Assembly (NCBI GenBank): GCA_047946875.1
Contig: CP181398.1
Span: 713,041-777,040 of the forward strand
Reading direction: 5' to 3'
Source: Candidatus Kerfeldbacteria bacterium
Lineage (GTDB): Bacteria > Patescibacteriota > Patescibacteriia > UBA10025 > JAHIVO01
DNA length: 64,000 nt
The translations under genes were made by a program, and so were the position numbers. Below are positions 2,261-63,986 of the stretch, piece after piece (position 1 is the first letter of the stretch; every line of letters begins with the position of its first letter). Under the pieces are notes generated by a model. That model had not been told where the DNA came from. It did no database searches and saw only the letters and a list, made by a program, of their open reading frames with translations.

Positions 2261-2995
2261 TTAAAAATCTCTTATTCTTAAGTCCTGCTCAGTTACATAG
2301 CTCAAATATCCACTTACTATACTATCCAATTCCGGTATTAAAACATTATTGTAAATAACTTTACTTAAATTACTAAAATTTTTATTAAGCATTAGTCTAA
2401 TTATTTTTATAGAATTATTAGATATATTAATACTTCCTTCAATAGCTTTATAACAATTATTGCATATCAAGCCACCCTTTTTATTACTAAAATAATTATT
2501 TTCATTTGATATTTTATTATTACAATGAAGACAATTATAAAGTTCTGGTTGATAACCTAAATAGCTGATATATCTTAAAATAAAATACCAAACTAACAAT
2601 TTATTATTATTATTTTTACTATTTTCTAAATTTTTTAAAATTTCTAAAAGTAATTTATATATTCTCTGATCCCCTTGGTTACCAGTATATGTACGATTTA
2701 CAACAAAACAAATATATTGCATTGTCTGTAAGTTATTTAAATTATTTTTTATATTACGAAAAATATTTACTGGTTCGGATGATGCAATAACATCATAATA
2801 TTTTCCTTGGATAATCATAAAATCAGCCAAAGTTATTGGTTCTAGATTACCAGCTAATTTACTTGTAATTTTCCTAACCCCTCTTGCAATAACTTTTATC
2901 AAGCCATGATCAGATGTAAAAACTATCAACAGACGATCAGCCTCCCTTATATTATCATGTTGTAAAATTAATCCTTGAGGAAAATATGTGCCCAT
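2261..2995 (-). CDS. recO: DNA repair protein RecO-like
   Basis: The size (244 aa) fits RecO. An N-terminal OB-fold-like region is followed by a C-terminal CxxC...CxxC zinc motif (LHCNNK...ICNNCYK). Confidence 0.55.
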   Translation of the reverse strand: MGTYFPQGLILQHDNIREADRLLIVFTSDHGLIKVIARGVRKITSKLAGNLEPITLADFMIIQGKYYDVIASSEPVNIFRNIKNNLNNLQTMQYICFVVNRTYTGNQGDQRIYKLLLEILKNLENSKNNNNKLLVWYFILRYISYLGYQPELYNCLHCNNKISNENNYFSNKKGGLICNNCYKAIEGSINISNNSIKIIRLMLNKNFSNLSKVIYNNVLIPELDSIVSGYLSYVTEQDLRIRDF

Positions 2996-3004
2996 GTGGA
3001 ATTT

Positions 3005-5926
3005 TTAATTCTTTTTAATTCCAAATATTATTTTTTTACCATTGACATCCAGCACTTTTTTCAAATCAACATTTTCTGGTATTCCTTCTAAACAATGAGA
3101 TGCTATTACTTCGCTGCAAAATTCTTTTTTGTAATGTTGTAGAATTCCTTTTAATTCTTCATCTTGAATTTCATGATAAACAGATACAGTGTCATGTATT
3201 GTTAATTTTGCATCCTTACGCATAGAATTAATATGTCTTATTAATTCACGAACCATACCTCGATGCCTTAATTCGTCAGTCATTGTAATATCGAGTGAAA
3301 CCTTGATGTCAGAAGTTTCTTTTGTTACAAATTCATTACCTTGCGGAACATCTTGAGAAATCACAACACTATCAACATTCATTTCTTCTTTGAGGATATT
3401 TTTTAATTCATCAGAAAAAATATCTGCTTTAATTACAAACTGAGACAAAGGCTGTCTTACTTTTAATTTATTCTCTTTTCGTAAACTATGTCCTAGTTCT
3501 ACAGCTTGACGCAATAGCTTCATACTACTAATAATTGTTTGATCAACGTCTTTATCTTCATTATTTGACCAATCTGCCAGATGAACACTTATAATATCAT
3601 TATCTTTTGGAATTAATTGTTGCCATAAATTATCAGCCAAAAAAGGTGTAAAAGGAGCTAATAATTTGGAAATTTCTACTAACACATAATGTAAAGTTTG
3701 TAGCGCCTCTTCTTTTTCTGTGTCTCCTTTTTTAAATCTATCTCTAGAACGTCTTAAATACCAAGTCGACAACTCATTAATAAAATCCGAAATACCTCGA
3801 CCAGCTTCAGTAACTTTATAAATATCTAAATTATTTGTTACATCTTTCAACAATTGATGCAATCGTGAAATTATCCATTTATCCAGTATATTATTTACTT
3901 TTGGTAAATCACCTGAATATTTTTTCAAATCATCACCTGCATACATTTTCCAAAATGATAATACATTCCATAGGATCATCCAGTTCTTCTTTACTACATC
4001 AGACAAATTCTTTTCATCAAATAATTTTACATCTCCCGGTTGGTTCATTGTAAAAAAATGCCAACGCAATGAATCAGCTCCATATTTATTAATCATTTCA
4101 AAATGATCTACAATATTTCCTTTTGATTTTGACATTTTCTTACCTTTTTTATCAAATATCAAATTCAAGCTAATAACATTTTTATATGGCGCTCCTTTAT
4201 CTAATAAAGCGGATACAGCCTGCAAAGTATAAAACCAACCACGTGTTTGATCTATTCCTTCAGAAATAAAATCTGCGGGGAAACTAATATTATCATCAAT
4301 TCTTTCTTTATTTTCAAATGGATAATGCCACTGAGCAAAAGGCATAGAACCAGAATCAAACCAAGCATCCATCACTTCATCTACACGCTTATATTCTTTA
4401 CCCTCTTTAACCAAAATAATATCATCAATAAACGGACGATGCATATCAAAATCATCACCAATTTTACTTGAATCTTTTGCTAATGATTTTAGCTCTTCAA
4501 TAGAACCAATACATATCTTGTCTCCATCCTCTGTTTCCCAAATTGGTAATGGAGTACCCCAATATCTTTCACGAGAAATTGCCCAGTCTTTTAACTCATT
4601 CAACCATTCTCCAAATCTACCATCCTTAATATAAGCTGGGACCCAATTAATTGTTTGATTACTTGCTATTAATTTTTCTTTTAAACTACTCATCTTTATA
4701 AACCAAGAATTTTTTGCATAATACAACAACGGTGTATCACAACGCCAACAGAACGGGTAATCATGTTTATATAGTTCTTCTTTTAGTAGTAAATTCTTAT
4801 CTTTTAATTCATCAATTATTAATACTTCAACTTTCTTGCTTTTTACAAAATGTCCAGCAAGATGACCAGTACTATCATTAAACTTACCATCTTCCCCTAC
4901 TGTATGATATTTTGGTAGTCCCACCTTCTCCCCTAACTGATAATCATCCTCACCATACATTACCGCTGTATGTACTACCCCGGTACCTTCTGATGTATTT
5001 ACAAAATCAGCTGGATAAACTTTATATGACGTATCTGTTTGTAATGGCTTAATATCAAATAATGGCTCATACGATATACCAACTAGATCTTTTCCTTGGA
5101 TAGTTTCAATTTCTTTATATTTTTCAAATAATTTTTCTGCAATAGGTTTAGCAAGTATATATATTTCTTTATCAACTTTTATCTTGACGTATTCAATATC
5201 CTCACCAATAGCTAAAGCTACATTGCCAGGCAAGGTCCATGGAGTAGTTGTCCAAGATAAAATATATGTATCTTTTTCATCAACAACTTTGAACTTAATA
5301 AAAACAGAATTTTCTTCTACCTCTTTGTATCCTTGTGCTACCTCATGTGATGATAGAGCAGTACCGCATCGTGGACAATGTGGGACAACTTTATAACCTT
5401 TATATAATAATTTTTTATCCCAAGCATTCTTGACTATCCACCATAATGATTCCATGTATTCATTTTCATAAGTTACATATGGCGTGTTGAGATCCAACCA
5501 AAAACCAATACGCTTGGTCATATCTTCAAAATCTTTTTTATATTTCCAAACACTTTCTTTACATTTCTGATTAAACTCAGTAATTCCATATTTCTCAATA
5601 TCAGGCTTACCTGATATACCTAGCTCTTTTTCTACTTGTAGCTCAACTGGCAAACCATGAGTATCCCAACCAGCTTTTCGCTCAACATAAAAACCTTGCA
5701 TAGTTTTATATCGCAAGATAACATCTTTATACACCCTAGCTAATACGTGATGAATACCTGGTTTTCCATTAGCAGTCGGTGGTCCTTCAAAAAAAACAAA
5801 AGATTTACCATCCTTAGTCTTGGCTAACGTTTTTTTGAATATTTCTTCTTTTTCCCAAAATTTTAATACTTCTTCTTCAATCTCGGGAAAACTTATTTGA
5901 TATGATTTTTTTTCTTTCTTTTCCAT
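3005..5926 (-). CDS. ileS: Isoleucine--tRNA ligase
   Basis: Class I aaRS HIGH-type motif (PPTANGKPGIHHVLAR) and KMSKS (KKMSKSKGN) are present. The 973-aa length and editing-domain architecture fit IleRS. Confidence 0.93.
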   Translation of the reverse strand: MEKKEKKSYQISFPEIEEEVLKFWEKEEIFKKTLAKTKDGKSFVFFEGPPTANGKPGIHHVLARVYKDVILRYKTMQGFYVERKAGWDTHGLPVELQVEKELGISGKPDIEKYGITEFNQKCKESVWKYKKDFEDMTKRIGFWLDLNTPYVTYENEYMESLWWIVKNAWDKKLLYKGYKVVPHCPRCGTALSSHEVAQGYKEVEENSVFIKFKVVDEKDTYILSWTTTPWTLPGNVALAIGEDIEYVKIKVDKEIYILAKPIAEKLFEKYKEIETIQGKDLVGISYEPLFDIKPLQTDTSYKVYPADFVNTSEGTGVVHTAVMYGEDDYQLGEKVGLPKYHTVGEDGKFNDSTGHLAGHFVKSKKVEVLIIDELKDKNLLLKEELYKHDYPFCWRCDTPLLYYAKNSWFIKMSSLKEKLIASNQTINWVPAYIKDGRFGEWLNELKDWAISRERYWGTPLPIWETEDGDKICIGSIEELKSLAKDSSKIGDDFDMHRPFIDDIILVKEGKEYKRVDEVMDAWFDSGSMPFAQWHYPFENKERIDDNISFPADFISEGIDQTRGWFYTLQAVSALLDKGAPYKNVISLNLIFDKKGKKMSKSKGNIVDHFEMINKYGADSLRWHFFTMNQPGDVKLFDEKNLSDVVKKNWMILWNVLSFWKMYAGDDLKKYSGDLPKVNNILDKWIISRLHQLLKDVTNNLDIYKVTEAGRGISDFINELSTWYLRRSRDRFKKGDTEKEEALQTLHYVLVEISKLLAPFTPFLADNLWQQLIPKDNDIISVHLADWSNNEDKDVDQTIISSMKLLRQAVELGHSLRKENKLKVRQPLSQFVIKADIFSDELKNILKEEMNVDSVVISQDVPQGNEFVTKETSDIKVSLDITMTDELRHRGMVRELIRHINSMRKDAKLTIHDTVSVYHEIQDEELKGILQHYKKEFCSEVIASHCLEGIPENVDLKKVLDVNGKKIIFGIKKN

Positions 5927-16034: not shown

Positions 16035-16437
16035 GGGAGCGTTTATAATCGACAGTGCTATCACTATAAAAATCGCAAACCATCCAATTCTATTTATATG
16101 ATGTAAAACTATTAGTAGAAATTACACAAATGCCAAATCATTTGTAAGCAATGTGAAGACTGCATTTGCTAACGCATTTACACCTTCATTTGCGCCCGTA
16201 GTTGCCTAAAACCAACTGCCATCCTGCTCTTAATGTCTGATAGAGAGATCCAGGGTGTTATAATTCAGACTAGATATCAATTTTATCCTTTTAGTAGATA
16301 TTTAAAAAACATAAAGGATCGGATTGTTGGATTTTGCTTGTTATATACCAATGATCTCAAACAAAAAATAAGCTAAGTTTGTAGAAGTTTTTATATAATA
16401 ATACTAGACAGGGGTGCGACCCCCCTCGCTTCCACCA
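16035..16437 (+). ncRNA. ssrA: tmRNA (SsrA), ~403 nt
   Basis: The 5' GGGAGCG pairs with 3' CGCTTCC, including the G3:U70 alanine identity pair. The D-loop analogue UUUAUAAUCGAC resembles E. coli AUUCUGGAUUCGAC. A T-arm AGGGG-UGCGACC-CCCCU is followed by the acceptor strand and CCA at 16435-16437. The gene sits directly downstream of smpB. A candidate tag frame ends ...AFTPSFAPVVA* with stop at 16207-16209. Confidence 0.8.
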
Positions 16438-35574: not shown

Positions 35575-35782
35575 ACATACCTCCTTGTTTTATATTCAAA
35601 CGTTTATTTCTCTAGTTTTGTATTCAATTGTTAAACAACAATTCAAGATAATTTATCATATTATACCTTTTTTGTCAACCCCTACTCTAATCATATTTAT
35701 CTTGACTAGCATAAAAACACATGATAAACTTTTATGAAAATAAAAACTCAAAACATAGCTCCTTGAAAGAAGGTGATTAAAA

Positions 35783-36124
35783 ATGCAGAAATATTCAATT
35801 AAAATTGCTTTTTCACTGTTAAAAGGTGATTCAAAATGGACAACAACTGCAGAAGCAGCGGAAATCCTATGTGCATTAATAATGGAAAATATTATTGATG
35901 ACTATATGCCAAATTCATTCGAGTTATCTTCAAAAGGCTCGGAAGATAAAAACGTATGGTTTGATTTTAATTTCCAATATAGTCGAGAATTTGAGACCCA
36001 AGCAAAAGCAATTCTTTGGGTTCATGATGCTGAAAATGCAATTATCGCATTATGGAATCAGAAAAAAGATTTTATTGATAATGTATGCTTTGAAAAAGAA
36101 GCCCACACTATTGAACTATCATAA
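35783..36124 (+). CDS. Hypothetical small protein (113 aa)
   Basis: An SD-like AAGAAGGTG lies upstream of the ORF, and the ORF is intact. There is no homology signal. Confidence 0.3.
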   Translation: MQKYSIKIAFSLLKGDSKWTTTAEAAEILCALIMENIIDDYMPNSFELSSKGSEDKNVWFDFNFQYSREFETQAKAILWVHDAENAIIALWNQKKDFIDNVCFEKEAHTIELS

Positions 36125-36185
36125 CAACACGACTAAATAAAAGCTCATTGAAAAAAATATGAGCTTTTTTATTATCCATTTTCTT

Positions 36186-36267
36186 TATTAAGCACCCTAA
36201 AGGGTGTATTCCTATTTATCTTTGTATTAGATCATTGTTCCCTAGAATATATTACCGGATTCCAGCC
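36186..36267. repeat. ~82-bp repeat unit (copy A) containing the 14-bp palindrome CACCCTAAAGGGTG. It is REP/BIME-like, or an IS200/IS605 subterminal hairpin.
   Basis: About 90% identical to copy B at 36866-36945. The palindrome is at 36193-36206, and an extra palindrome copy lies at 36309-36322. Confidence 0.7.
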
Positions 36268-36337
36268 TTCAGGATGTAATGCCACTTTTCCAATAACAAT
36301 AACTTTATCACCCTAAAGGGTGTAATCCTATCTTATT

Positions 36338-36853
36338 TTAAATCGTAAAATCAACAATTGGATAATTTGCAAAACATAAATTCATCCATTCCGTACCCTT
36401 CTTTGCAATCCAATAATCATAACTCGAAAATTGATAACTTTTCAAATTTTTTGTTAATCCGTGCTTAATTGGATTATGATGAATATAATTAAAATGTTTC
36501 CAATAATCAACCTCATTGCGAATACAATAATCCCAATAGTTTTGAAATATTTGACGTCCTTTTTTATTTTCCATTTTATTTATAAGATACGACGTTCTAC
36601 CATGCAGATAATTTATCCTATTAGAAATTGACTTGGCATGCCTAACTTTAAAGAGAATATAATAATGATTCGATAATACAACCCATGCCATTAATTCATA
36701 TCCACCACTTTGGAATTCAGCCTTTAGACTGTTTTGCAATAAAGTCTTTTTTTTGTCATTGTTAAAAATTTTCTGCTTACAATAGATTCTAGCTGTAATA
36801 AAATAATATTGATTATTAATAAATAAATGTGGTGGGTGGTGTATTTTGATCAT
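36338..36853 (-). mobile_element. tnpA: IS200/IS605-family Y1 (HUH) transposase / REP-associated tyrosine transposase (RAYT)-like gene
   Basis: 171 aa. HuH-like LSNHYYILF. The C-terminal conserved Y-motif NYIHHNPIKHGL matches the IS200/RAYT consensus YxHxNPVKxGL. The gene is flanked by palindrome-bearing repeats. Confidence 0.7.
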
Positions 36854-36865
36854 ATATTTTCTTCA

Positions 36866-36989
36866 TTAAGCACCCTAAAGGGTGTATTCCTGTTTATTTT
36901 TGCATTAGATCATTGTTCCCTTGAATGTATTACCGGATTCCAGCCCTGCCTACTCCTCCAAAGGCGGACAGGCGGTAGGCAGGCAGGGG
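36866..36989. repeat. Repeat copy B (36866-36945, CACCCTAAAGGGTG palindrome at 36871-36884) plus an adjacent GC-rich hairpin (CTGCCTAC...GTAGGCAG)
   Basis: A direct repeat of copy A. The GC-rich stem-loop at 36944-36989 is unusual in an AT-rich genome. Confidence 0.7.
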
Positions 36990-37006
36990 TATATTCCTGT
37001 TAATAA

Positions 37007-37861
37007 TTATTCTACCCAAACTTCTTCCCCATCACTTGTTATTATTACATCCCCTATTTCATCATTTCTAAATATCTCAATATTATAACCATTTAATTTG
37101 TTCAATGTTAATTTATGAGGATGACCGAAGCTATTTCCCTCCCCTGACTGAATGACGGCATAATCCGGATCAACAGCTTCCAAAAAATCAAATGAAGATG
37201 AATACTTACTTCCGTGATGAGCTACTTTGAGTACATTAGAATTTATATCAATGTTATTTTCTAATAATTTTTCCTCAACATCAATAGATGCATCGCCAGT
37301 GAATAAAAAAGAGGTATCTTGATATATAAGTTTAGATACTACCGAAGTGTCATTAATATCTTCTGGTGTTTCTTCATATTTATCAAATGGGTATAATATT
37401 TCTAAAGCCACCTCACCAAATTTATACTCTTGACCAAATATAGGTTCAGTCACTATCATATCTTTTATTTCCATAATTGATTGCCACTCTTTATAAGACG
37501 AGGATGAATATTTAACGTCAGAATATATAACTTGCCCAACTTCATATTTATTTACCACACCTATCAGCCCAGCCAAATGATCTTCATGAGCATGAGTCAA
37601 AATAATCAAATCGATTTTCTGTTGATAAAATGGTAAATGGTTACCTAACTTACTTACGACTGATGTACCGGGACCCCCATCAATCAAAATTGTATGATGA
37701 GACGGAGTTTTTATTAAAATACTATCTCCCTGGCCAACATCAAAAAATATTACTTCTAATAAATCTTGTGATTCAGTTTGTCTGACAATAAATAACAATA
37801 TCAAACACACTATTAATAAATTTCCTAATATAATTAATATTTTTTTATTACTTGATTTCAT
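37007..37861 (-). CDS. comEC: ComEC C-terminal metallo-beta-lactamase domain protein (encoded as a separate ORF from the ComEC membrane part)
   Basis: DVGQGDSILIKT...IDGGPGTSV...ILTHAHEDHLAGL MBL motifs. 4-nt overlap with the upstream ComEC membrane ORF. Confidence 0.8.
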   Translation of the reverse strand: MKSSNKKILIILGNLLIVCLILLFIVRQTESQDLLEVIFFDVGQGDSILIKTPSHHTILIDGGPGTSVVSKLGNHLPFYQQKIDLIILTHAHEDHLAGLIGVVNKYEVGQVIYSDVKYSSSSYKEWQSIMEIKDMIVTEPIFGQEYKFGEVALEILYPFDKYEETPEDINDTSVVSKLIYQDTSFLFTGDASIDVEEKLLENNIDINSNVLKVAHHGSKYSSSFDFLEAVDPDYAVIQSGEGNSFGHPHKLTLNKLNGYNIEIFRNDEIGDVIITSDGEEVWVE

Positions 37862-39348
37862 TTGGTTTTATTATTCTTTCTATTTAAAAATAAAAAAATT
37901 ATAGCAAGGATACTATAGCCAATTATTAACCACCAAAAACTAAGATTTCCAAAAGCATAAGAACTCCATTCAAATTGAGCAAAAAATTCTACTAACTTTA
38001 TTATATAAATTAGTACTAACCAAACTATCCAACCTACTATCATACCAAGAGGCTGCCAGATAAAACTTAAAATTGCAGCAATAAAACCAAGCGCCATAGC
38101 TAAAGGTATAGCTGGTAAAATTAGCATATTTGCCAGTGGAGCGATCAATGACAATCGCCCAAACTGAAATAAGATCAAAGGAAGAGTCATAATAGTAGCT
38201 GACAAAGTAGCGACTAAACTACTACGTAGTTCAAAAAAATCGGGTAACCATTTGAAACCTTTTTCTAAATATGGGGACAAATAAATCAAACCCATAGTTG
38301 CCAGAAATGATAACTGGAATCCTGCATCAAAAATAAGTACCTTAGGATTAATTATTACCATGACCACGGCTGCTAATATTAGTAGGTTTGTCACCCTGCT
38401 CTGTCGACCTAGTTGAGTAGCAAGTAACACTAGCATACCCATAATCGCCGCTCTAACAACCGAAGCTTGAGCACCAGTGATTAATACGAAGAATAATATC
38501 ACCCCTAAAGAAACCCAAAAAGAAACCTTCCTAGGAATCCATAATATTTTACATATATTCAATATCAAGATAGCAATAATTGTAATATTATATCCAGATA
38601 GAGCTACAATATGAGTCGTGCCAGTTAGATTAAAACTATTCATCAAGTCATCTGGAATCGCCTTCTTAGCTCCAAGTAATAGTGCTCCCAAAAAAGAAGC
38701 TTGTGGCTCAGCTATCAAGCCTTGGACAGCATTTGTAAAAACATTTTTTATTTTTAATAACCCAGACATTAATATATTACCTTGATCCTTTGCTATTAAG
38801 GAAATTTGTGGCCGATAACAAACAGTGTAAATATCGAAGCTACTTAAGTACTTATCATAGTTAAAAATCCTAGTCCCTGCTTCAGTCGAAAATTCTATTG
38901 GCTCAGGCGCTTGCATTTGGCACTTTATTTTCAAAACATCTCCATAATCATAAACAGGATATAGCTCTGTTTTTATTAGTACCTTTCCATTAATTTCGCC
39001 TTTAAATTTTATAGTTAACTTTGCGTGGTCTGAACGTTGATCTTTTTCTTTACTTACAATACCTATTAACTCAATTTCTTGATCATGATAATGCTGAATA
39101 TCTGTTACCCCAATATTATTGGACACAGAGATATCATATCGAAAAACACCAAGTACAAAGAATATTATTCCTAATCCTAGAACTAATATTATTTTATTTT
39201 TACCGAAAATAATTAAGATGCTTAACCCAACTCCACCTATACAGTATATGATAATCAAAGGAATAACAACGAATGACCGCAACCCTACCCCAATCACAAA
39301 AAAAATGCAGACTACTAGAAATATTTTAGATTTAGAAATATTACTCAT
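37858..39348 (-). CDS. comEC: ComEC/Rec2 DNA-uptake channel, N-terminal DUF4131 plus competence membrane domain
   Basis: A polytopic membrane protein with a ComEC-like competence domain. It lies next to the MBL-domain ORF. Confidence 0.75.
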   Translation of the reverse strand: MSNISKSKIFLVVCIFFVIGVGLRSFVVIPLIIIYCIGGVGLSILIIFGKNKIILVLGLGIIFFVLGVFRYDISVSNNIGVTDIQHYHDQEIELIGIVSKEKDQRSDHAKLTIKFKGEINGKVLIKTELYPVYDYGDVLKIKCQMQAPEPIEFSTEAGTRIFNYDKYLSSFDIYTVCYRPQISLIAKDQGNILMSGLLKIKNVFTNAVQGLIAEPQASFLGALLLGAKKAIPDDLMNSFNLTGTTHIVALSGYNITIIAILILNICKILWIPRKVSFWVSLGVILFFVLITGAQASVVRAAIMGMLVLLATQLGRQSRVTNLLILAAVVMVIINPKVLIFDAGFQLSFLATMGLIYLSPYLEKGFKWLPDFFELRSSLVATLSATIMTLPLILFQFGRLSLIAPLANMLILPAIPLAMALGFIAAILSFIWQPLGMIVGWIVWLVLIYIIKLVEFFAQFEWSSYAFGNLSFWWLIIGYSILAIIFLFLNRKNNKTK

Positions 39349-59144: not shown

Positions 59145-62100
59145 TTATAAAACTAATAAAAATTGTGCACCACTGGCACCAGCTAGATTTCCTGTGATAT
59201 TCCAGTCTGCACCTCCGTTAGTTGATTTAAAAATATCACCACTGGCACCAGTTCCCGCGTAAATTGAATTGCCAATTTCTGTTAAAAAGAATACACCGGT
59301 AGCGCCAGCTAGATTTCCTGTGATATTCCAGTCTGCACCTCCGTTAGTTGATTTAAAAATATCACCATTATTAGAAGTTCCGGCGTAAATTGCACCTCCG
59401 ATTTCTAGTAAAGAGTATACACGAGTAGCGCCAGCTAGATTTCCTGTGATATTCCAGTCTGCACCTCCGTTAGTTGATTTAAAAATATCACCATCAGGAC
59501 TAGTTCCCGCGTAAATTGCACCTCCGGTTTCTAGTAAAGAATATATAGTATTAGCGCCAGCTAGATTTCCTGTGATATTCCAGTTCGCACCTCCATCAGT
59601 TGATTTAAAGATACCACCATTAACACCAGTTCCCACGTAAATTGCACCTCCGGTTTCTAGTAAAGAATGTGCACCACCACTAGCACCAGTTATATTTCCT
59701 GCGATATTCCAGTCTGTACCTCCGTTAGTTGATTTAAAAACAACACTATTTGGACTAGTTCCCGCGTAAATTGCACCTCCGGTTTCTAATAAAGAATATA
59801 CAGTAATAGCGCCAGCTAGGTTTCCTGTGATATTCCAGTTCGCACCTCCATTAGTTGATTTAAAAACAACACTATTTGGAGTAGTTCCCGCGTAAATTGC
59901 ACCTCCGGTTTCTAGTAAAGAATATACTTCATTAGCGCCAGCTAGATTTCCAATATTATTCCAGTTCGCACCTCCGTCAGTTGATTTAAAGATACCACCA
60001 TTAGGTCTCGTAGCTGCAAGTAATATAGGGCAATCAAGCGGGCAATTAGCATTATTTTCACCTGGTTCGCAAATACCGTTGGGACAGACCGGTCCAAAAA
60101 TCGAAAGCGTTAGCCAGTTAGTATCAGCACCACATGCGTTAGTAGCCGTAACGCTACGAGTTTGAATAATTGCTGCTGTTGGAGTACCGGAGATTACACC
60201 CGAAGTGGCATTAAGGCTTAACCCAGCAGGCAAAGGCACAACTGAGAGACTATATGTAATTGGTAGAGTGCCCTGAGAAATAGTAATACCATAAGAAAAT
60301 GAAACACCTACTGTACCAGTAGCGCTTTGTGTATTAACAACAGGAGCGATACAGGCAGCTAGTGGTGGAATTGTGCCAGTAGTAATTGATAATATACCAT
60401 CAACACCCATTGTACTGACATTAGCCAATTGATTCCAATTAGTTCCATTATTATAGGAACTATATATCCACGAATGTCCTACCATTCCATCTGTGGCCGC
60501 AAAAAGAGTGTCAACACTATCTTTGGTAAATTTATTTACCACAAATGCATTAGTTGTGTTAAAATCCTCTCTCAAATCCCAAGATGCACCAAAATTATCT
60601 GAAGTAAAAATATCTTCAGCACTACAGCAACCACCGGTTATAACACGATTATTTGAAAAGAATAATGTTTCAATATTTTGTGTCAAACTGACATTTGGAG
60701 TGGGAGCCCAGGCAATACCATCATCAGAATATATTACTTCTTGGCGTGACACCCCTCCACCAGCATATAAACGTCCATTTCCTTCTATAATACTATATGC
60801 ATGAAAGCCTACTCCCAAAGTTGGAAAACTTGTCACCTCTGTCCAATTAGCTCCCTCATCATTTGAATGAAAAACTACTCCACCATTATGAGTTGTAAGG
60901 TATATATCCACTGGACCAATAGTTGCTATACCTGTAACCCCTTGTCTTCCTATTGCATTAGTCATTTGAATCCAAGTTGTTCCATTATTAAGAGAACGAT
61001 AAAAATTTTGTCCAGCTCTAGACCCTATATATAATATTCCACCTCTTTCATGTATATCTGCAAATTGCGTTTCCCCTGGATCTAATCCTGTTGAAGCCGT
61101 CCAAGAACCCCCTCCATCATCTGAATAAAATATTTGACCATTCAAACCAGTAGCAGCTAATATTCTATTTCCTGAAATTAATAAATCGTAAACATGAGTA
61201 ACGCCTGGCAAATCACCAGTATTAACCCATGTCGCTCCACCATCATCTGACCTCAAGACATCTCCATTTGGATAAGTTCCAACTAATAAAGGACCACCAA
61301 CTACAAGTGGACAATCATTATCAGTTGCAAATGTACATCCCAATCCTGCAGGACAACATCCATTGCTGGCAACCTGACATGCACAATCTGGATCTTCAAC
61401 AATAGTACACGTAGGAGGACAACCACCACCACACCCATTAGGAACACAAACAGGGGCACCACATGCACCAGCCACACTAGGTATATTATCATAAAAACTA
61501 ATATTACCAGCGTTATCTTCTGCTATCACGTCTACATAAAATGTTGTATTTGAAATATCAGAAGTCCAAACACCTTCAAAAATATTATCTAAGTCTGGGT
61601 CTGTCATTGCTACAGGATTATTAGCACTAATTACTGATATTCCATCAGGATTTTGTAATACTGCTTGTACACTAGCTATACCATCAGCGTCTGTAACCTC
61701 AGCCCTAAAACAAAAGTCAGTGCCTGTACCACCAGTAGGCGGATTAACAGTTGGCATGATAATTTGAGGTCCACCATTTCCTCTAACATTAACCAATATT
61801 TCAATACTTTCACTCCTATTCCCAGCTGTATCTACTGCCTCTGCTTGAATAGAATGCCAACCATCAGTCAATACATCTGTATTAATAGCATATGAGTATG
61901 GAACCAACGGATCAACAAACTGTCGATGATAATCAATATAGAAATTTACATGCTGAACACCACGATTATCATTAGCGTCTACTTCAATATCTATATCACC
62001 AACTACCGCTGTACCATAAATTGGCGTTGGTGGATGTATAAAAGATATTGTTGGCGCGATCTTATCATTCATCTCATTATCTACAGGAATAGTTATAGTA

Positions 62101-63986
62101 GCACTACCAATATTCCCATACATATCATATGCATCTATCCGAATATCATGCTCTTCATTAAGATACCCTAAGGTGTCCCATTCCCAAGTCCATTGATTGT
62201 TAGCAACATGAGTTGCATTACCTCGGAAAATATTATCAACAAAAACTTGAACATAATCAATCCAATTCAAATCATCTACTGTAATATCTATATCAATTAC
62301 ATCTTTTCTTTGACATATTATTCCAGCTCCACATGGAGTAACTTGATTACAAGGCGGGCCAACACCTGAACAAGTACCCGGAATATTACCAATAGTAACT
62401 ACTGGAGCAGTAGTATCAAAATTTTCTACCTTTACAAAAATAGTTTTAGTAGAAACAAGCGTTGTGTTATCTGTCGCCGTAGCTATAAGTGTATAAATAC
62501 CATTTGGCGTATCTGGAGCAATTGGTGGACCAGTACAATCCCCAACAGTATCCCAAAGGTGTGTACCAGAATATGGATTTGATAATCCTCCAAACACATG
62601 AAGGGCACAAGGAGTTTCTACCCCATCACTATCAAACGCATGTATTTCTACACCTATAATACCGCCATCATCAGAAGCGACAACATCTATTGGTACAGTC
62701 CCCGTAATAGTCTGACCATCTGCCAAAGAAATAATATCAATGAAAGGAGGATTGTTAACAACTCCAGAATTATTTATTACTAAAGTATATGTAGGGCTAT
62801 TGCTCCAATTTCCAACATTGTCATATGCTTTTAATAGTAAACTATGATTACCATCAACATACTCATTAGAAATAAAATTCCATGACCAACTAGCAGGATC
62901 ATCATCTGTATACTTGTATTGACCATCGATATAAAATTCTACTTTAGCTACACCCGTAGCTGTAGCAATAGGCAGATCAGTCAAAATAACTTCTACGGCC
63001 TGTGTTCCATTAACATTATTAAAAATATTAGCTACCGGAGCAACAGTATTTAAAGTAACCGCATCAAACTGAGGACCAACACGATCTGTGATCGTCCCAG
63101 TAACATTCTTAAAATAATTAAAACAATTACAATCTGCATTAGTAAAAGAACTGCATGGATCAAACACTCCAGCCAAACCGATATTCCAAGTATTGAATCC
63201 CCCATATATTAAGTATTCTAAATGTCCATAAAGATCTACATTCTTACCATCTGGAGATACTATATATTGATAAGTATAAGAATTTGAAGGGCAGAAATAT
63301 TCTTGATTTGTATCATCCCAACAAGTACTTGTATTAAAAGGTGCTAAACAAATATCAAAAATATTATAAGGATCAGTCGGCATACTCAATCCAAGACTTG
63401 AGCCCAACTTATCACTCCAAGAAGGCCAACCTGAAGAAGTAAGATTTTTGATATAAGTACCTCCTTCTAGTTTTGGAAATTCTCCATTTATTTCTTTATA
63501 TTCCAAAGCGCCAGTATAAATGTCATTAAGATCACTAACTCTCTTCATATCTCGATGCATTTTTTCTTTATTAGTATCTGTATCATTAATAGTAAATTTC
63601 CAATTAGCTAACAATGCATTATAAATACTTAATGTTTCAGCAGAAGCTCCTTCGTTATATGAAATCAAATATAATTGTGGGTATAAGGCATCTCCAACCT
63701 GTGCTGCACCGTCAAAACCAGTACCTGAGATATTCCAAGCTGCTACATATACTGTTCTACCTGACCTGATCGCGTTATATCCATCCACTACAATATCTTG
63801 TGGGGCTGGGGCAGCAGAACCAAAATGATTAAAATACCATTCTCTAGCTGACTTACCTTCTTCATTTTCATAAACCCTAATACCAATCGCATCGTCTGAC
63901 AAATCTCGTAAGAAGAAAAATTCTTTTAATAATTCATCCACCCCAATAGTACTAGGTGTACCTTCATGAACCACCGTATCAATCAC
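59145..63986 (-). CDS. Giant surface protein (at least 1613 aa) with Ig-like domains, BNR/Asp-box beta-propeller repeats and six C-terminal tandem ~43-aa repeats
   Basis: Asp-box motifs SxDGGxxW/NW (SDDGGATW, STDGGANW, STNGGADW). C-terminal repeats FKSTNGGADWNITGNLAGA..YSLLE.GGAIYAGT. The ORF start lies 14 nt from the window end, so the gene may extend further upstream. Confidence 0.7.
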   Translation of the reverse strand: MIDTVVHEGTPSTIGVDELLKEFFFLRDLSDDAIGIRVYENEEGKSAREWYFNHFGSAAPAPQDIVVDGYNAIRSGRTVYVAAWNISGTGFDGAAQVGDALYPQLYLISYNEGASAETLSIYNALLANWKFTINDTDTNKEKMHRDMKRVSDLNDIYTGALEYKEINGEFPKLEGGTYIKNLTSSGWPSWSDKLGSSLGLSMPTDPYNIFDICLAPFNTSTCWDDTNQEYFCPSNSYTYQYIVSPDGKNVDLYGHLEYLIYGGFNTWNIGLAGVFDPCSSFTNADCNCFNYFKNVTGTITDRVGPQFDAVTLNTVAPVANIFNNVNGTQAVEVILTDLPIATATGVAKVEFYIDGQYKYTDDDPASWSWNFISNEYVDGNHSLLLKAYDNVGNWSNSPTYTLVINNSGVVNNPPFIDIISLADGQTITGTVPIDVVASDDGGIIGVEIHAFDSDGVETPCALHVFGGLSNPYSGTHLWDTVGDCTGPPIAPDTPNGIYTLIATATDNTTLVSTKTIFVKVENFDTTAPVVTIGNIPGTCSGVGPPCNQVTPCGAGIICQRKDVIDIDITVDDLNWIDYVQVFVDNIFRGNATHVANNQWTWEWDTLGYLNEEHDIRIDAYDMYGNIGSATITIPVDNEMNDKIAPTISFIHPPTPIYGTAVVGDIDIEVDANDNRGVQHVNFYIDYHRQFVDPLVPYSYAINTDVLTDGWHSIQAEAVDTAGNRSESIEILVNVRGNGGPQIIMPTVNPPTGGTGTDFCFRAEVTDADGIASVQAVLQNPDGISVISANNPVAMTDPDLDNIFEGVWTSDISNTTFYVDVIAEDNAGNISFYDNIPSVAGACGAPVCVPNGCGGGCPPTCTIVEDPDCACQVASNGCCPAGLGCTFATDNDCPLVVGGPLLVGTYPNGDVLRSDDGGATWVNTGDLPGVTHVYDLLISGNRILAATGLNGQIFYSDDGGGSWTASTGLDPGETQFADIHERGGILYIGSRAGQNFYRSLNNGTTWIQMTNAIGRQGVTGIATIGPVDIYLTTHNGGVVFHSNDEGANWTEVTSFPTLGVGFHAYSIIEGNGRLYAGGGVSRQEVIYSDDGIAWAPTPNVSLTQNIETLFFSNNRVITGGCCSAEDIFTSDNFGASWDLREDFNTTNAFVVNKFTKDSVDTLFAATDGMVGHSWIYSSYNNGTNWNQLANVSTMGVDGILSITTGTIPPLAACIAPVVNTQSATGTVGVSFSYGITISQGTLPITYSLSVVPLPAGLSLNATSGVISGTPTAAIIQTRSVTATNACGADTNWLTLSIFGPVCPNGICEPGENNANCPLDCPILLAATRPNGGIFKSTDGGANWNNIGNLAGANEVYSLLETGGAIYAGTTPNSVVFKSTNGGANWNITGNLAGAITVYSLLETGGAIYAGTSPNSVVFKSTNGGTDWNIAGNITGASGGAHSLLETGGAIYVGTGVNGGIFKSTDGGANWNITGNLAGANTIYSLLETGGAIYAGTSPDGDIFKSTNGGADWNITGNLAGATRVYSLLEIGGAIYAGTSNNGDIFKSTNGGADWNITGNLAGATGVFFLTEIGNSIYAGTGASGDIFKSTNGGADWNITGNLAGASGAQFLLVL
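59170..59990. repeat. Tandem DNA repeat, ~129-bp period, about 6 units, within the giant surface protein gene
   Basis: Near-identical blocks (ccggtagcgccagctagatttcctgtgatattccagtctgcacctccgttagttgatttaaaaatatcacc...) recur every ~129 nt. Confidence 0.8.

Follow-up and report, generated by a model that had tools for sequence, protein, structure and literature searches.

A probable REPtron in Candidatus Kerfeldbacteria: a REP-associated tyrosine transposase gene surrounded by short hairpins with a GGAAT foot

The stretch of Candidatus Kerfeldbacteria DNA analyzed here is 64,000 nucleotides long (contig CP181398.1, positions 713,041 to 777,040) and will be called the window. It contains a gene for a REP-associated tyrosine transposase (RAYT), which is surrounded by hairpin-forming copies of a repetitive extragenic palindromic (REP) sequence and by two direct repeats; gene and hairpins together probably form a REPtron. 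The annotation of the protein as a RAYT is already public, and the identity of the gene as such is known: an identical protein in GenBank, from a Candidatus Kerfeldbacteria metagenome-assembled genome (MAG), carries the name "REP-associated tyrosine transposase". The REPs come in two forms, type A and type B, and are described in gene sense, i.e., in the orientation of the RAYT coding strand. They have been located with a profile hidden Markov model (HMM) built from 45 REPs, all from other genomes and none from the window. This profile finds exactly five sites in the window, three of type A and two B-type or B-like, and the next match has an E-value of 1.7. The features of the locus are as follows.

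36178..36267, minus strand: left copy of the 90-nt direct repeat, containing REP A1 (repeat search and BLAST)
36190-36214, minus strand: A-type REP A1, within the left repeat (profile match 36193-212, E 1.7e-5)
36255..36279, plus strand: degenerate B-type REP B1, gene sense CATCC-TGAA-GGCTG-GAATCC, opposite to the A copies (profile match 36256-76, E 0.005)
36306..36330, minus strand: A-type REP A2, GGATTA-CACCC-TTTA-GGGTG, 9 nt downstream of the RAYT stop codon (profile match 36309-28, E 2e-4)
36338..36853, minus strand: RAYT (TnpAREP) gene, 171 amino acids (aa), with a proline-rich N-terminus (HHPPHLF), N-H-Y-Y at the HuH position, and the tyrosine motif NYIHHNP
36710..36734, plus strand: B-type REP-like sequence within the RAYT coding sequence, gene sense CAGTCTAAAGGCTGAATTCC, encoding SLKAEF (profile match 36712-32, E 2e-4)
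36856..36945, minus strand: right copy of the 90-nt direct repeat, made up of the 3' half of a B-type stem with its foot (GGCTGGAATCC), a 43-nt spacer, an A-type REP, and the RAYT leader
36868..36892, minus strand: A-type REP A3, gene sense GGAATA-CACCC-TTTA-GGGTG, 18 nt upstream of the RAYT start codon (profile match 36871-90, E 1.7e-5)
36935..37004, minus strand: long GC-rich hairpin (36944-36988) with GGAAT-like feet on either side and a 9-bp stem by folding, directly after the stop codon of ComEC-MBL

Three A-type REPs, one B-type REP, and one GC-rich variant lie at most 150 nt from the RAYT gene. Their order is A, degenerate B, and A downstream of the gene, and the GC-rich variant followed by A upstream of it. 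A GGAAT foot stands beside every hairpin at the locus.

By family models and predicted fold, the 171-aa protein is a RAYT and not the TnpA of an IS200 element. It contains NYIHHNPIKHGL and scores 108.8 bits against the NCBIfam model NF047646 (REP_Tyr_transpos, cutoff 80 bits) and 30.3 bits against Pfam Y1_Tnp (PF01797, cutoff 23 bits). Against the IS200 equivalog NF033573 it reaches 26.8 bits, below the cutoff of 55 bits. The tyrosine motif, YIHHNP at residues 123-128, has the Y---NP signature of the class-2 TnpAY1 proteins and not the Y---Q of class 1, which includes IS200 (Quentin et al. 2018, PMC6006769). In the homolog alignment, Y123, N127, and most of this motif are invariant; the motif reads YIHHNP in 54 homologs and YIHYNP in 10. 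The other motifs of the family are a proline-rich HHPPH N-terminus, NHYH, and [NQ]YWD. The sole PDB match by sequence is E. coli TnpAREP (4er8). An AlphaFold (AF2) model built from 20 homologs, with a confidence (pLDDT) of 90.8, has as its top Foldseek match the same protein bound to its REP hairpin (4er8_A, E 6.9e-11, TM 0.68/0.71), followed by a second tier formed by the IS608, ISDra2, and IS200 transposases at E ~1e-5. No tnpB adjoins the gene, whose neighbors are ComEC-MBL and a 113-aa orphan open reading frame (ORF).

A first-pass annotation of this DNA had noticed the 171-aa ORF with its IS200/RAYT tyrosine motif and had preferred a RAYT with its REP cluster, or bacterial interspersed mosaic element (BIME), over an IS200/IS605 element. 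The NCBIfam results, the Y---NP motif, the 4er8 fold, and the lack of tnpB all bear this preference out, and the Pfam match that it called for is present. It had also described a HuH-like motif in the N-terminal part of the protein. The motif is indeed found at the expected position, but it reads N-H-Y-Y, with a tyrosine (Y65) in place of the second histidine. This tyrosine aligns with the second histidine of the E. coli TnpAREP HuH in the PDB sequence alignment.

The same annotation had reported direct repeats of ~80 bp and ~90% identity on both sides of the gene, each with a perfect 14-bp palindrome. The repeats are readily recovered, since a repeat search aligns 36166-36267 with 36844-36945 (90% over 102 nt) and BLAST aligns 36178-36267 with 36856-36945 (93% over 90 nt). 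The third copy of the 14-mer that had been claimed nearby is also present: CACCCTAAAGGGTG has three exact copies, at 36193, 36309, and 36871, all at the locus, and 0.2 chance matches with at most two mismatches would be expected in 64 kb. The palindrome, on the other hand, is not perfect. The reverse complement of CACCCTAAAGGGTG, CACCCTTTAGGGTG, differs from it at two positions, and the 14-mer is therefore a 5-bp stem, CACCC/GGGTG, closed by a 4-nt loop that is not symmetric. The direct repeat is composite. Besides an A unit and the RAYT leader, it holds a 43-nt spacer and, of a B unit, the 3' half that includes the foot; the homology between left and right copies stops 3 nt short of the RAYT ATG. 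The GC-rich hairpin had been noted earlier as well. In it, GGGTATATTCCTGTT (repeat family D3) copies the tail of the A hairpins, and the hairpin looks like an extended-stem variant of the REP. Not noted in that annotation were the second hairpin type with its inverse orientation (36256-36276), the copy of this type within the coding sequence (36712-32), and the foot that goes with every hairpin. An Rfam scan of the window gave no match in or near the RAYT locus, the only matches elsewhere being a transfer-messenger RNA (tmRNA) and tRNA.

The flanks of RAYT homologs at seven loci in other genomes have been compared with the window (among them L005, L006, L007, L008, L010, L011, and L013; protein identity 54-81%). 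They are assembled from one 20-nt unit of foot and hairpin that occurs in two forms. The unit consists of a GGAAT(T/A) foot, 1-2 nt, a 5-bp GC-rich stem, and a 4-nt TTTA/TTCA loop. Type A reads GGAAT(T/A)-C-ACCC-TTTA-GGGT-G in gene sense, with the stem CACCC/GGGTG. Type B, C-AGCC-TAAA-GGCT-G-AATTCC, is the inverted unit in which the central pair C:G has become G:C, and its stem is CAGCC/GGCTG. The foot positions are conserved in the 45-REP profile at 45/45 (G), 44/45 (G), 45/45 (A), 33/45 (A), and 44/45 (T). To examine the stem, copies were collected with a pattern that fixed the foot, the loop, and the outer stem and left the central pair free. Among the 54 copies found, this pair is C:G in 26, G:C in 21, T:A in 5, and non-Watson-Crick in 2. 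Since 52 of the 54 pairs are Watson-Crick, the stem covaries, which supports a selected hairpin.

The arrangement of the units in these relatives is BIME-like. Type A in gene sense and type B in antisense flank the RAYT orthologs of L005, L007, L008, L010, L011, and L013. The orientations of the ACCC and AGCC types are always opposite in L008, L010, L011, and L013, and in a distal cluster of L013 both are flipped together. A REP upstream of the ATG, in the same position as A3, is found in L005, L007, L008, L010, and L011, and GC-rich hairpins of a kind similar to that of the window occur in L005 and in L004, a metagenome contig. Between orthologs whose proteins are 54-81% identical, the 20-nt motif is retained and the spacer sequence around it is not. 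Sequences like the B-type copy within the RAYT coding sequence are also found in the coding regions of L005, L006, L007, and L008; those of L010, L011, and L013 have a degenerate form of it. Synonymous codon identity at this internal site is 0.71-0.78 against a mean of 0.55, a rise that is not peculiar to it, with equal peaks at NHYHILF and EWMNLCF.

REPs have also been found at a distance from RAYT genes. L013 holds ~24 copies in 15.8 kb, all extragenic and including clusters 2.7-5 kb from the RAYT, and units occur in both orientations, in arrays of up to ~8, and also kilobases from RAYT genes. A scan for CACCCTAAAGGGTGTAWTCC in collections of genome and metagenome contigs, which do not contain the source genome or L003 (introduced below), returned one match each in L001 and L004. 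L001 is a 3.9-kb contig of an Anaerohalosphaeraceae MAG (Planctomycetota); both contigs are short and RAYT-free, and their REP copies are orphans. The REP/BIME interpretation put forward by the first-pass annotation is thus supported by the occurrence of the motif around RAYT homologs in seven other genomes, in alternating orientations and with a covarying stem, and also away from any RAYT (L013, L004, and L001).

The orphan in L001 deserves a separate remark. It is intergenic (L001:1199-1227, TTTATCACCCTAAAGGGTGTAATCCT) and is identical over 26 nt to the second REP copy of the window (positions 36304-36329), in a genome of a different phylum.

Two segments of the locus are present in the window and missing from related DNA.

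36212..36270, unstranded: 59-bp segment, precisely missing in L003 by alignment, and equally placeable at 36209-36267 through a GAA microhomology
35685..37006, unstranded: 1322-bp block with the 113-aa ORF and its promoter and terminator, both repeat modules, the RAYT gene, and the GC hairpin, delimited by alignment with L016 and L017

L003 is a 2.6-kb contig from another metagenome that is identical to the window over 860 bp apart from the 59-bp gap. In its alternative placement the gap coincides with a module boundary, since 36267 is also the endpoint of the homology between the left and right repeats. The left and right modules differ at 5 of the 59 positions, which makes recent copying from the right module unlikely. 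The simplest reading of the alignment is a recent loss of the 59 bp in L003, by slippage or excision; alternatively, the segment may have been inserted from an unseen third copy. That the 59-nt spacer module (36209-36267) is a discrete unit, recently excised or inserted beside an A-type hairpin by a RAYT of the Candidate Phyla Radiation (CPR), is a further explanation, which we regard as improbable. If true, the event would capture, directly and in nature, the movement of REP modules by a RAYT, and the H-Y-Y enzyme would either tolerate tyrosine as a metal ligand or have lost its histidine only after the 59-nt event.

The 1322-bp block is missing in the syntenic relatives L016 (3615-3735) and L017 (6411-6530), which together cover 22 kb, and only ~10 nt stand in its place. 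The gene order ComEC, ComEC-MBL, Band_7-like, 77-aa ORF, and Band_7 is kept in the window and in both relatives. The window ComEC-MBL shares 83-85% identity with its counterparts in L016 and L017, and the three genomes are about equidistant. Parsimony slightly favors a gain of the block in the window lineage over losses in the relatives. No REPs have been found in the 22 kb of L016 and L017. The 113-aa orphan ORF (35783-36124, plus strand), which has a promoter and a terminator of its own, is oriented divergently to the RAYT gene. Searches of Pfam, PHROG, and PADLOC gave no match, and no homolog stands beside other RAYTs; there is therefore no sign of a functional link between the two genes.

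The locus is probably a REPtron, i.e., an apparently single-copy, domesticated HUH/Y1 RAYT with its cognate REPs. This reading is supported by the BIME-like arrangement of the units, the covarying stem, and the REPs that are sometimes distant from any RAYT. By analogy with E. coli TnpAREP and IS608 TnpA, the RAYT would bind the folded hairpin and its foot on single-stranded DNA, the YIHHNP tyrosine would cleave and rejoin the strand next to the hairpin, and cleavage and rejoining would spread or rearrange REP modules. The same analogy is what suggests binding, cleavage, and any current activity for the protein of the window. In this genome the REP system looks minimal and possibly disabled: no REPs are seen away from the gene in the ~74 kb surveyed (see below), and a tyrosine replaces the second metal-binding histidine.

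Several observations weigh against the REPtron reading. A canonical REP carries a conserved 5' GT[AG]G foot; at this locus the tetranucleotide is absent from the hairpin foot, which is GGAAT(T/A). The 143-146-nt modules, folded as single-stranded DNA on both strands, form no long hairpin of the kind known from REP doublets (REPINs) and give only short local stems (z -0.5 to -1.5). The DNA surveyed from Candidatus Kerfeldbacteria, the 64-kb window plus 9.9 kb of upstream flank taken from a sister contig (L014), amounts to ~74 kb or ~5.6% of the 1.31-Mb genome, and no REP copy lies outside the locus in it. High genome-wide copy number, which is the classical hallmark of REPs, lacks support from this survey. 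A Poisson estimate of our own makes the zero copies seen compatible with up to ~50 evenly spread copies genome-wide and excludes a dense family of several hundred. The window protein also lacks the intact metal-binding motif (His-hydrophobic-His). H-x-H is present in 81 of the 82 homologs that cover the region, 73 of them with NHYH, and the window protein is the sole exception. The distal REP cluster of L008 is no independent evidence of dispersal, as it sits beside a divergent second RAYT paralog.

The loss of the histidine raises the question of whether the locus is a decaying relic, with a RAYT made catalytically dead by the change from HuH to HuY, a REP family extinct in a reduced genome apart from the gene-adjacent copies, and no remaining activity. 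The HuH histidines are ligands of the catalytic metal. Quentin et al. 2018 (PMC6006769) take the loss of core motifs to indicate that a protein no longer functions. That H65Y is unique among the 82 homologs and falls on the second histidine of the E. coli HuH would fit such decay, as would the lack of REPs in the other ~73 kb and the degenerate B copy. Against it, the ORF is intact and all remaining invariant residues are kept. The dN/dS ratio to the 81% ortholog is 0.07 (with dS saturated), and the dN values to two outgroups are the same as those of the sister lineage (0.19 vs 0.19 and 0.22 vs 0.22), so that no rate acceleration or relaxation is seen in the window lineage by this comparison. 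From these values, the gene looks maintained under purifying selection. Because of this, and because the same protein recurs on five or more contigs, drawn from two or more samples, the H65Y change is real and either recent or tolerated; it could simply be very recent. The population-level 59-bp indel at the module boundary also suggests recent change. A relic in this strict sense is considered unlikely.

Mobility of the gene and its hairpin-bearing ends as one unit, with the flanking repeats as the ends of an autonomous IS200-like insertion sequence (IS), would explain why the whole block is present in the window and missing in two syntenic relatives, why RAYT orthologs have a different gene neighborhood at every locus compared, and why hairpins stand on both sides of the gene. 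This is very unlikely given the IS200 score (26.8 vs 55), the Y---NP motif in place of the class-1 Y---Q, the absence of tnpB, and the single RAYT copy within the ~74 kb. The ends are direct repeats of each other and not a distinct pair of left and right ends. Because the indel also takes in the unrelated 113-aa gene, promoter and terminator included, its limits are not the hairpins. The same REPs also occur without a RAYT, in L013, L004, and L001. Still less credible is the explanation that the hairpins and the duplicated RAYT leader are local regulatory elements (terminators, attenuators, or an autoregulatory operator) and not transposase substrates. A1 and A3, when read on the plus strand, do resemble terminators, with a hairpin followed by a T-run. 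A hairpin is always found immediately 5' of the ATG, the homology between left and right repeats stops 3 nt short of it, and L006 has at least four tandem ~100-bp copies of the leader with the first codons. However, a 5-bp stem would make a weak terminator, the motif is kept across 54-81% orthologs without the spacer sequence, and the units occur in both orientations, in arrays of up to ~8 units, and kilobases from RAYT genes. Regulation and a role as substrate are also not mutually exclusive, and a purely regulatory role of the hairpins seems extremely unlikely.

Among the known systems, the E. coli REPtron (TnpAREP, group 2 of Bertels and subclass 2.2 of Quentin; 4er8) resembles the locus in its HUH/Y1 fold, its Y---NP motif, and its gene flanked by its own REPs; the E. 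coli gene is single-copy, and the ~74 kb surveyed here hold one RAYT. It also has two REP subtypes that alternate in orientation, the Y and Z REPs of BIMEs. The window RAYT differs in being 24% identical to 4er8 and in the tyrosine at the second HuH position. Its REPs are short perfect 5-bp stems without a bulge and with a GGAAT foot in place of GTAG, and the high copy number of the E. coli REPs has no counterpart in the ~74 kb. The IS200/IS605 TnpA proteins (IS608, ISDra2, IS200), which recognize subterminal hairpins on single-stranded DNA, have the same catalytic fold, as reflected in the second-tier Foldseek matches. They are set apart by the points already made against an insertion sequence: the IS200 cutoff, the Y---NP motif, the single copy in the ~74 kb, the lack of tnpB, and the directly repeated ends.

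Subclass 2.5 (Bertels group 3), known from Pseudomonas and Stenotrophomonas, has short perfect palindromic REPs with the foot 1-2 nt from the stem and inverted REP pairs with a spacer between them, as does the family of the window. Its protein motifs are different (DH[LF]H and YI[VI]ANP), it reaches hundreds of copies per genome, and the modules of the window form no long REPIN hairpin. Subclass 2.8 comprises cyanobacterial RAYTs with a HYH motif, YIHYNP, and a proline-rich N-terminus; close relatives occur in unrelated phyla, and REPs are inserted inside some genes (Quentin et al. 2018, PMC6006769). The consensus of the window family (NHYH, YIHHNP/YIHYNP, and the HHPPH N-terminus) agrees with these motifs. 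On the other hand, the REPs of subclass 2.8 are long and canonical with a 5' GT[AG]G foot (PMC6006769), unlike the short units with a GGAAT foot found here, and its W motif is W[YH] where that of the window family is WD. Provisionally, the window family is closest to subclass 2.8, an assignment made by comparing motifs alone.

The locus extends the known range of REPtrons and supplies test material, and leaves the current understanding of REPtrons unchanged. Most of what is known of RAYT/REP systems comes from Proteobacteria and Cyanobacteria, and no paper linking RAYTs to Patescibacteria or the CPR turned up in a text search of the literature. To our knowledge, REPs of this family, which combine a GGAAT foot with a 5-bp stem and occur as two covarying variants tied to orientation, are undescribed. 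A unit this small, available in two such variants, lends itself well to tests of hairpin and foot recognition by a RAYT. Three natural experiments accompany it: the unique change of histidine to tyrosine in the metal-binding motif of a gene still under purifying selection, the strain-level 59-bp indel at a module boundary, and the 1.3-kb islet that is present or absent between congeneric genomes.

Further observations have been made in the window. A 1613-aa ORF on the minus strand at the end of the window (59145-63986) has no exact product recorded in the assembly index; the other window proteins tested do have one. The tmRNA lies on the plus strand at 16035-16437; it scores 84.8 bits in Rfam and is not reported by ARAGORN. 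ComEC is split into two ORFs with a 4-nt overlap on the minus strand (37007-39348), one of 496 aa with the DUF4131 and Competence domains and one of 284 aa with the metallo-beta-lactamase (MBL) domain, and both relatives, L016 and L017, show the same split. Where the MBL ORF reaches the edge of the 1322-bp block, its final ~8 codons no longer match those of the relatives. The right edge of the block is marked by the promoter of the Band_7-like gene, TAGGGGTTGACA-N17-TATAAT.

The comparison loci have peculiarities of their own. In L008, a second RAYT-like gene (575-1117), 27% identical to the window protein by tblastn, lies 1.3 kb upstream of the P0005 RAYT and has its own A/B REP cluster at 288-385, so that two REPtrons would lie within 3 kb. 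The tandem ~100-bp repeats of L006 (1-421, at least four copies) precede the RAYT ortholog P0003, and each holds a CACGC-TTTC-GCGTG hairpin and the first four codons. The P0003 coding sequence also has an in-frame 33-nt duplication (L006:530-600, LKAEFQSGG twice) that contains the REP-like sequence, and a further copy is found downstream at 1017-1046. In L013, two components of a diversity-generating retroelement (2818-4320), a bAvd-like protein and an RVT_1 reverse transcriptase, are encoded 1-2.5 kb upstream of the P0010 RAYT, with REP arrays on both sides. Finally, L005 (150-195), L007 (9850-9889), and L006 (1225-1285) have a common coding tail, ...LYKQAV[DE]RI..., near the RAYT ortholog, which is the C-terminus of a HisKA_7TM-type neighbor; in L006, this neighbor may survive only as a remnant. 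The shared tail may reflect a conserved linkage or a co-transferred segment.

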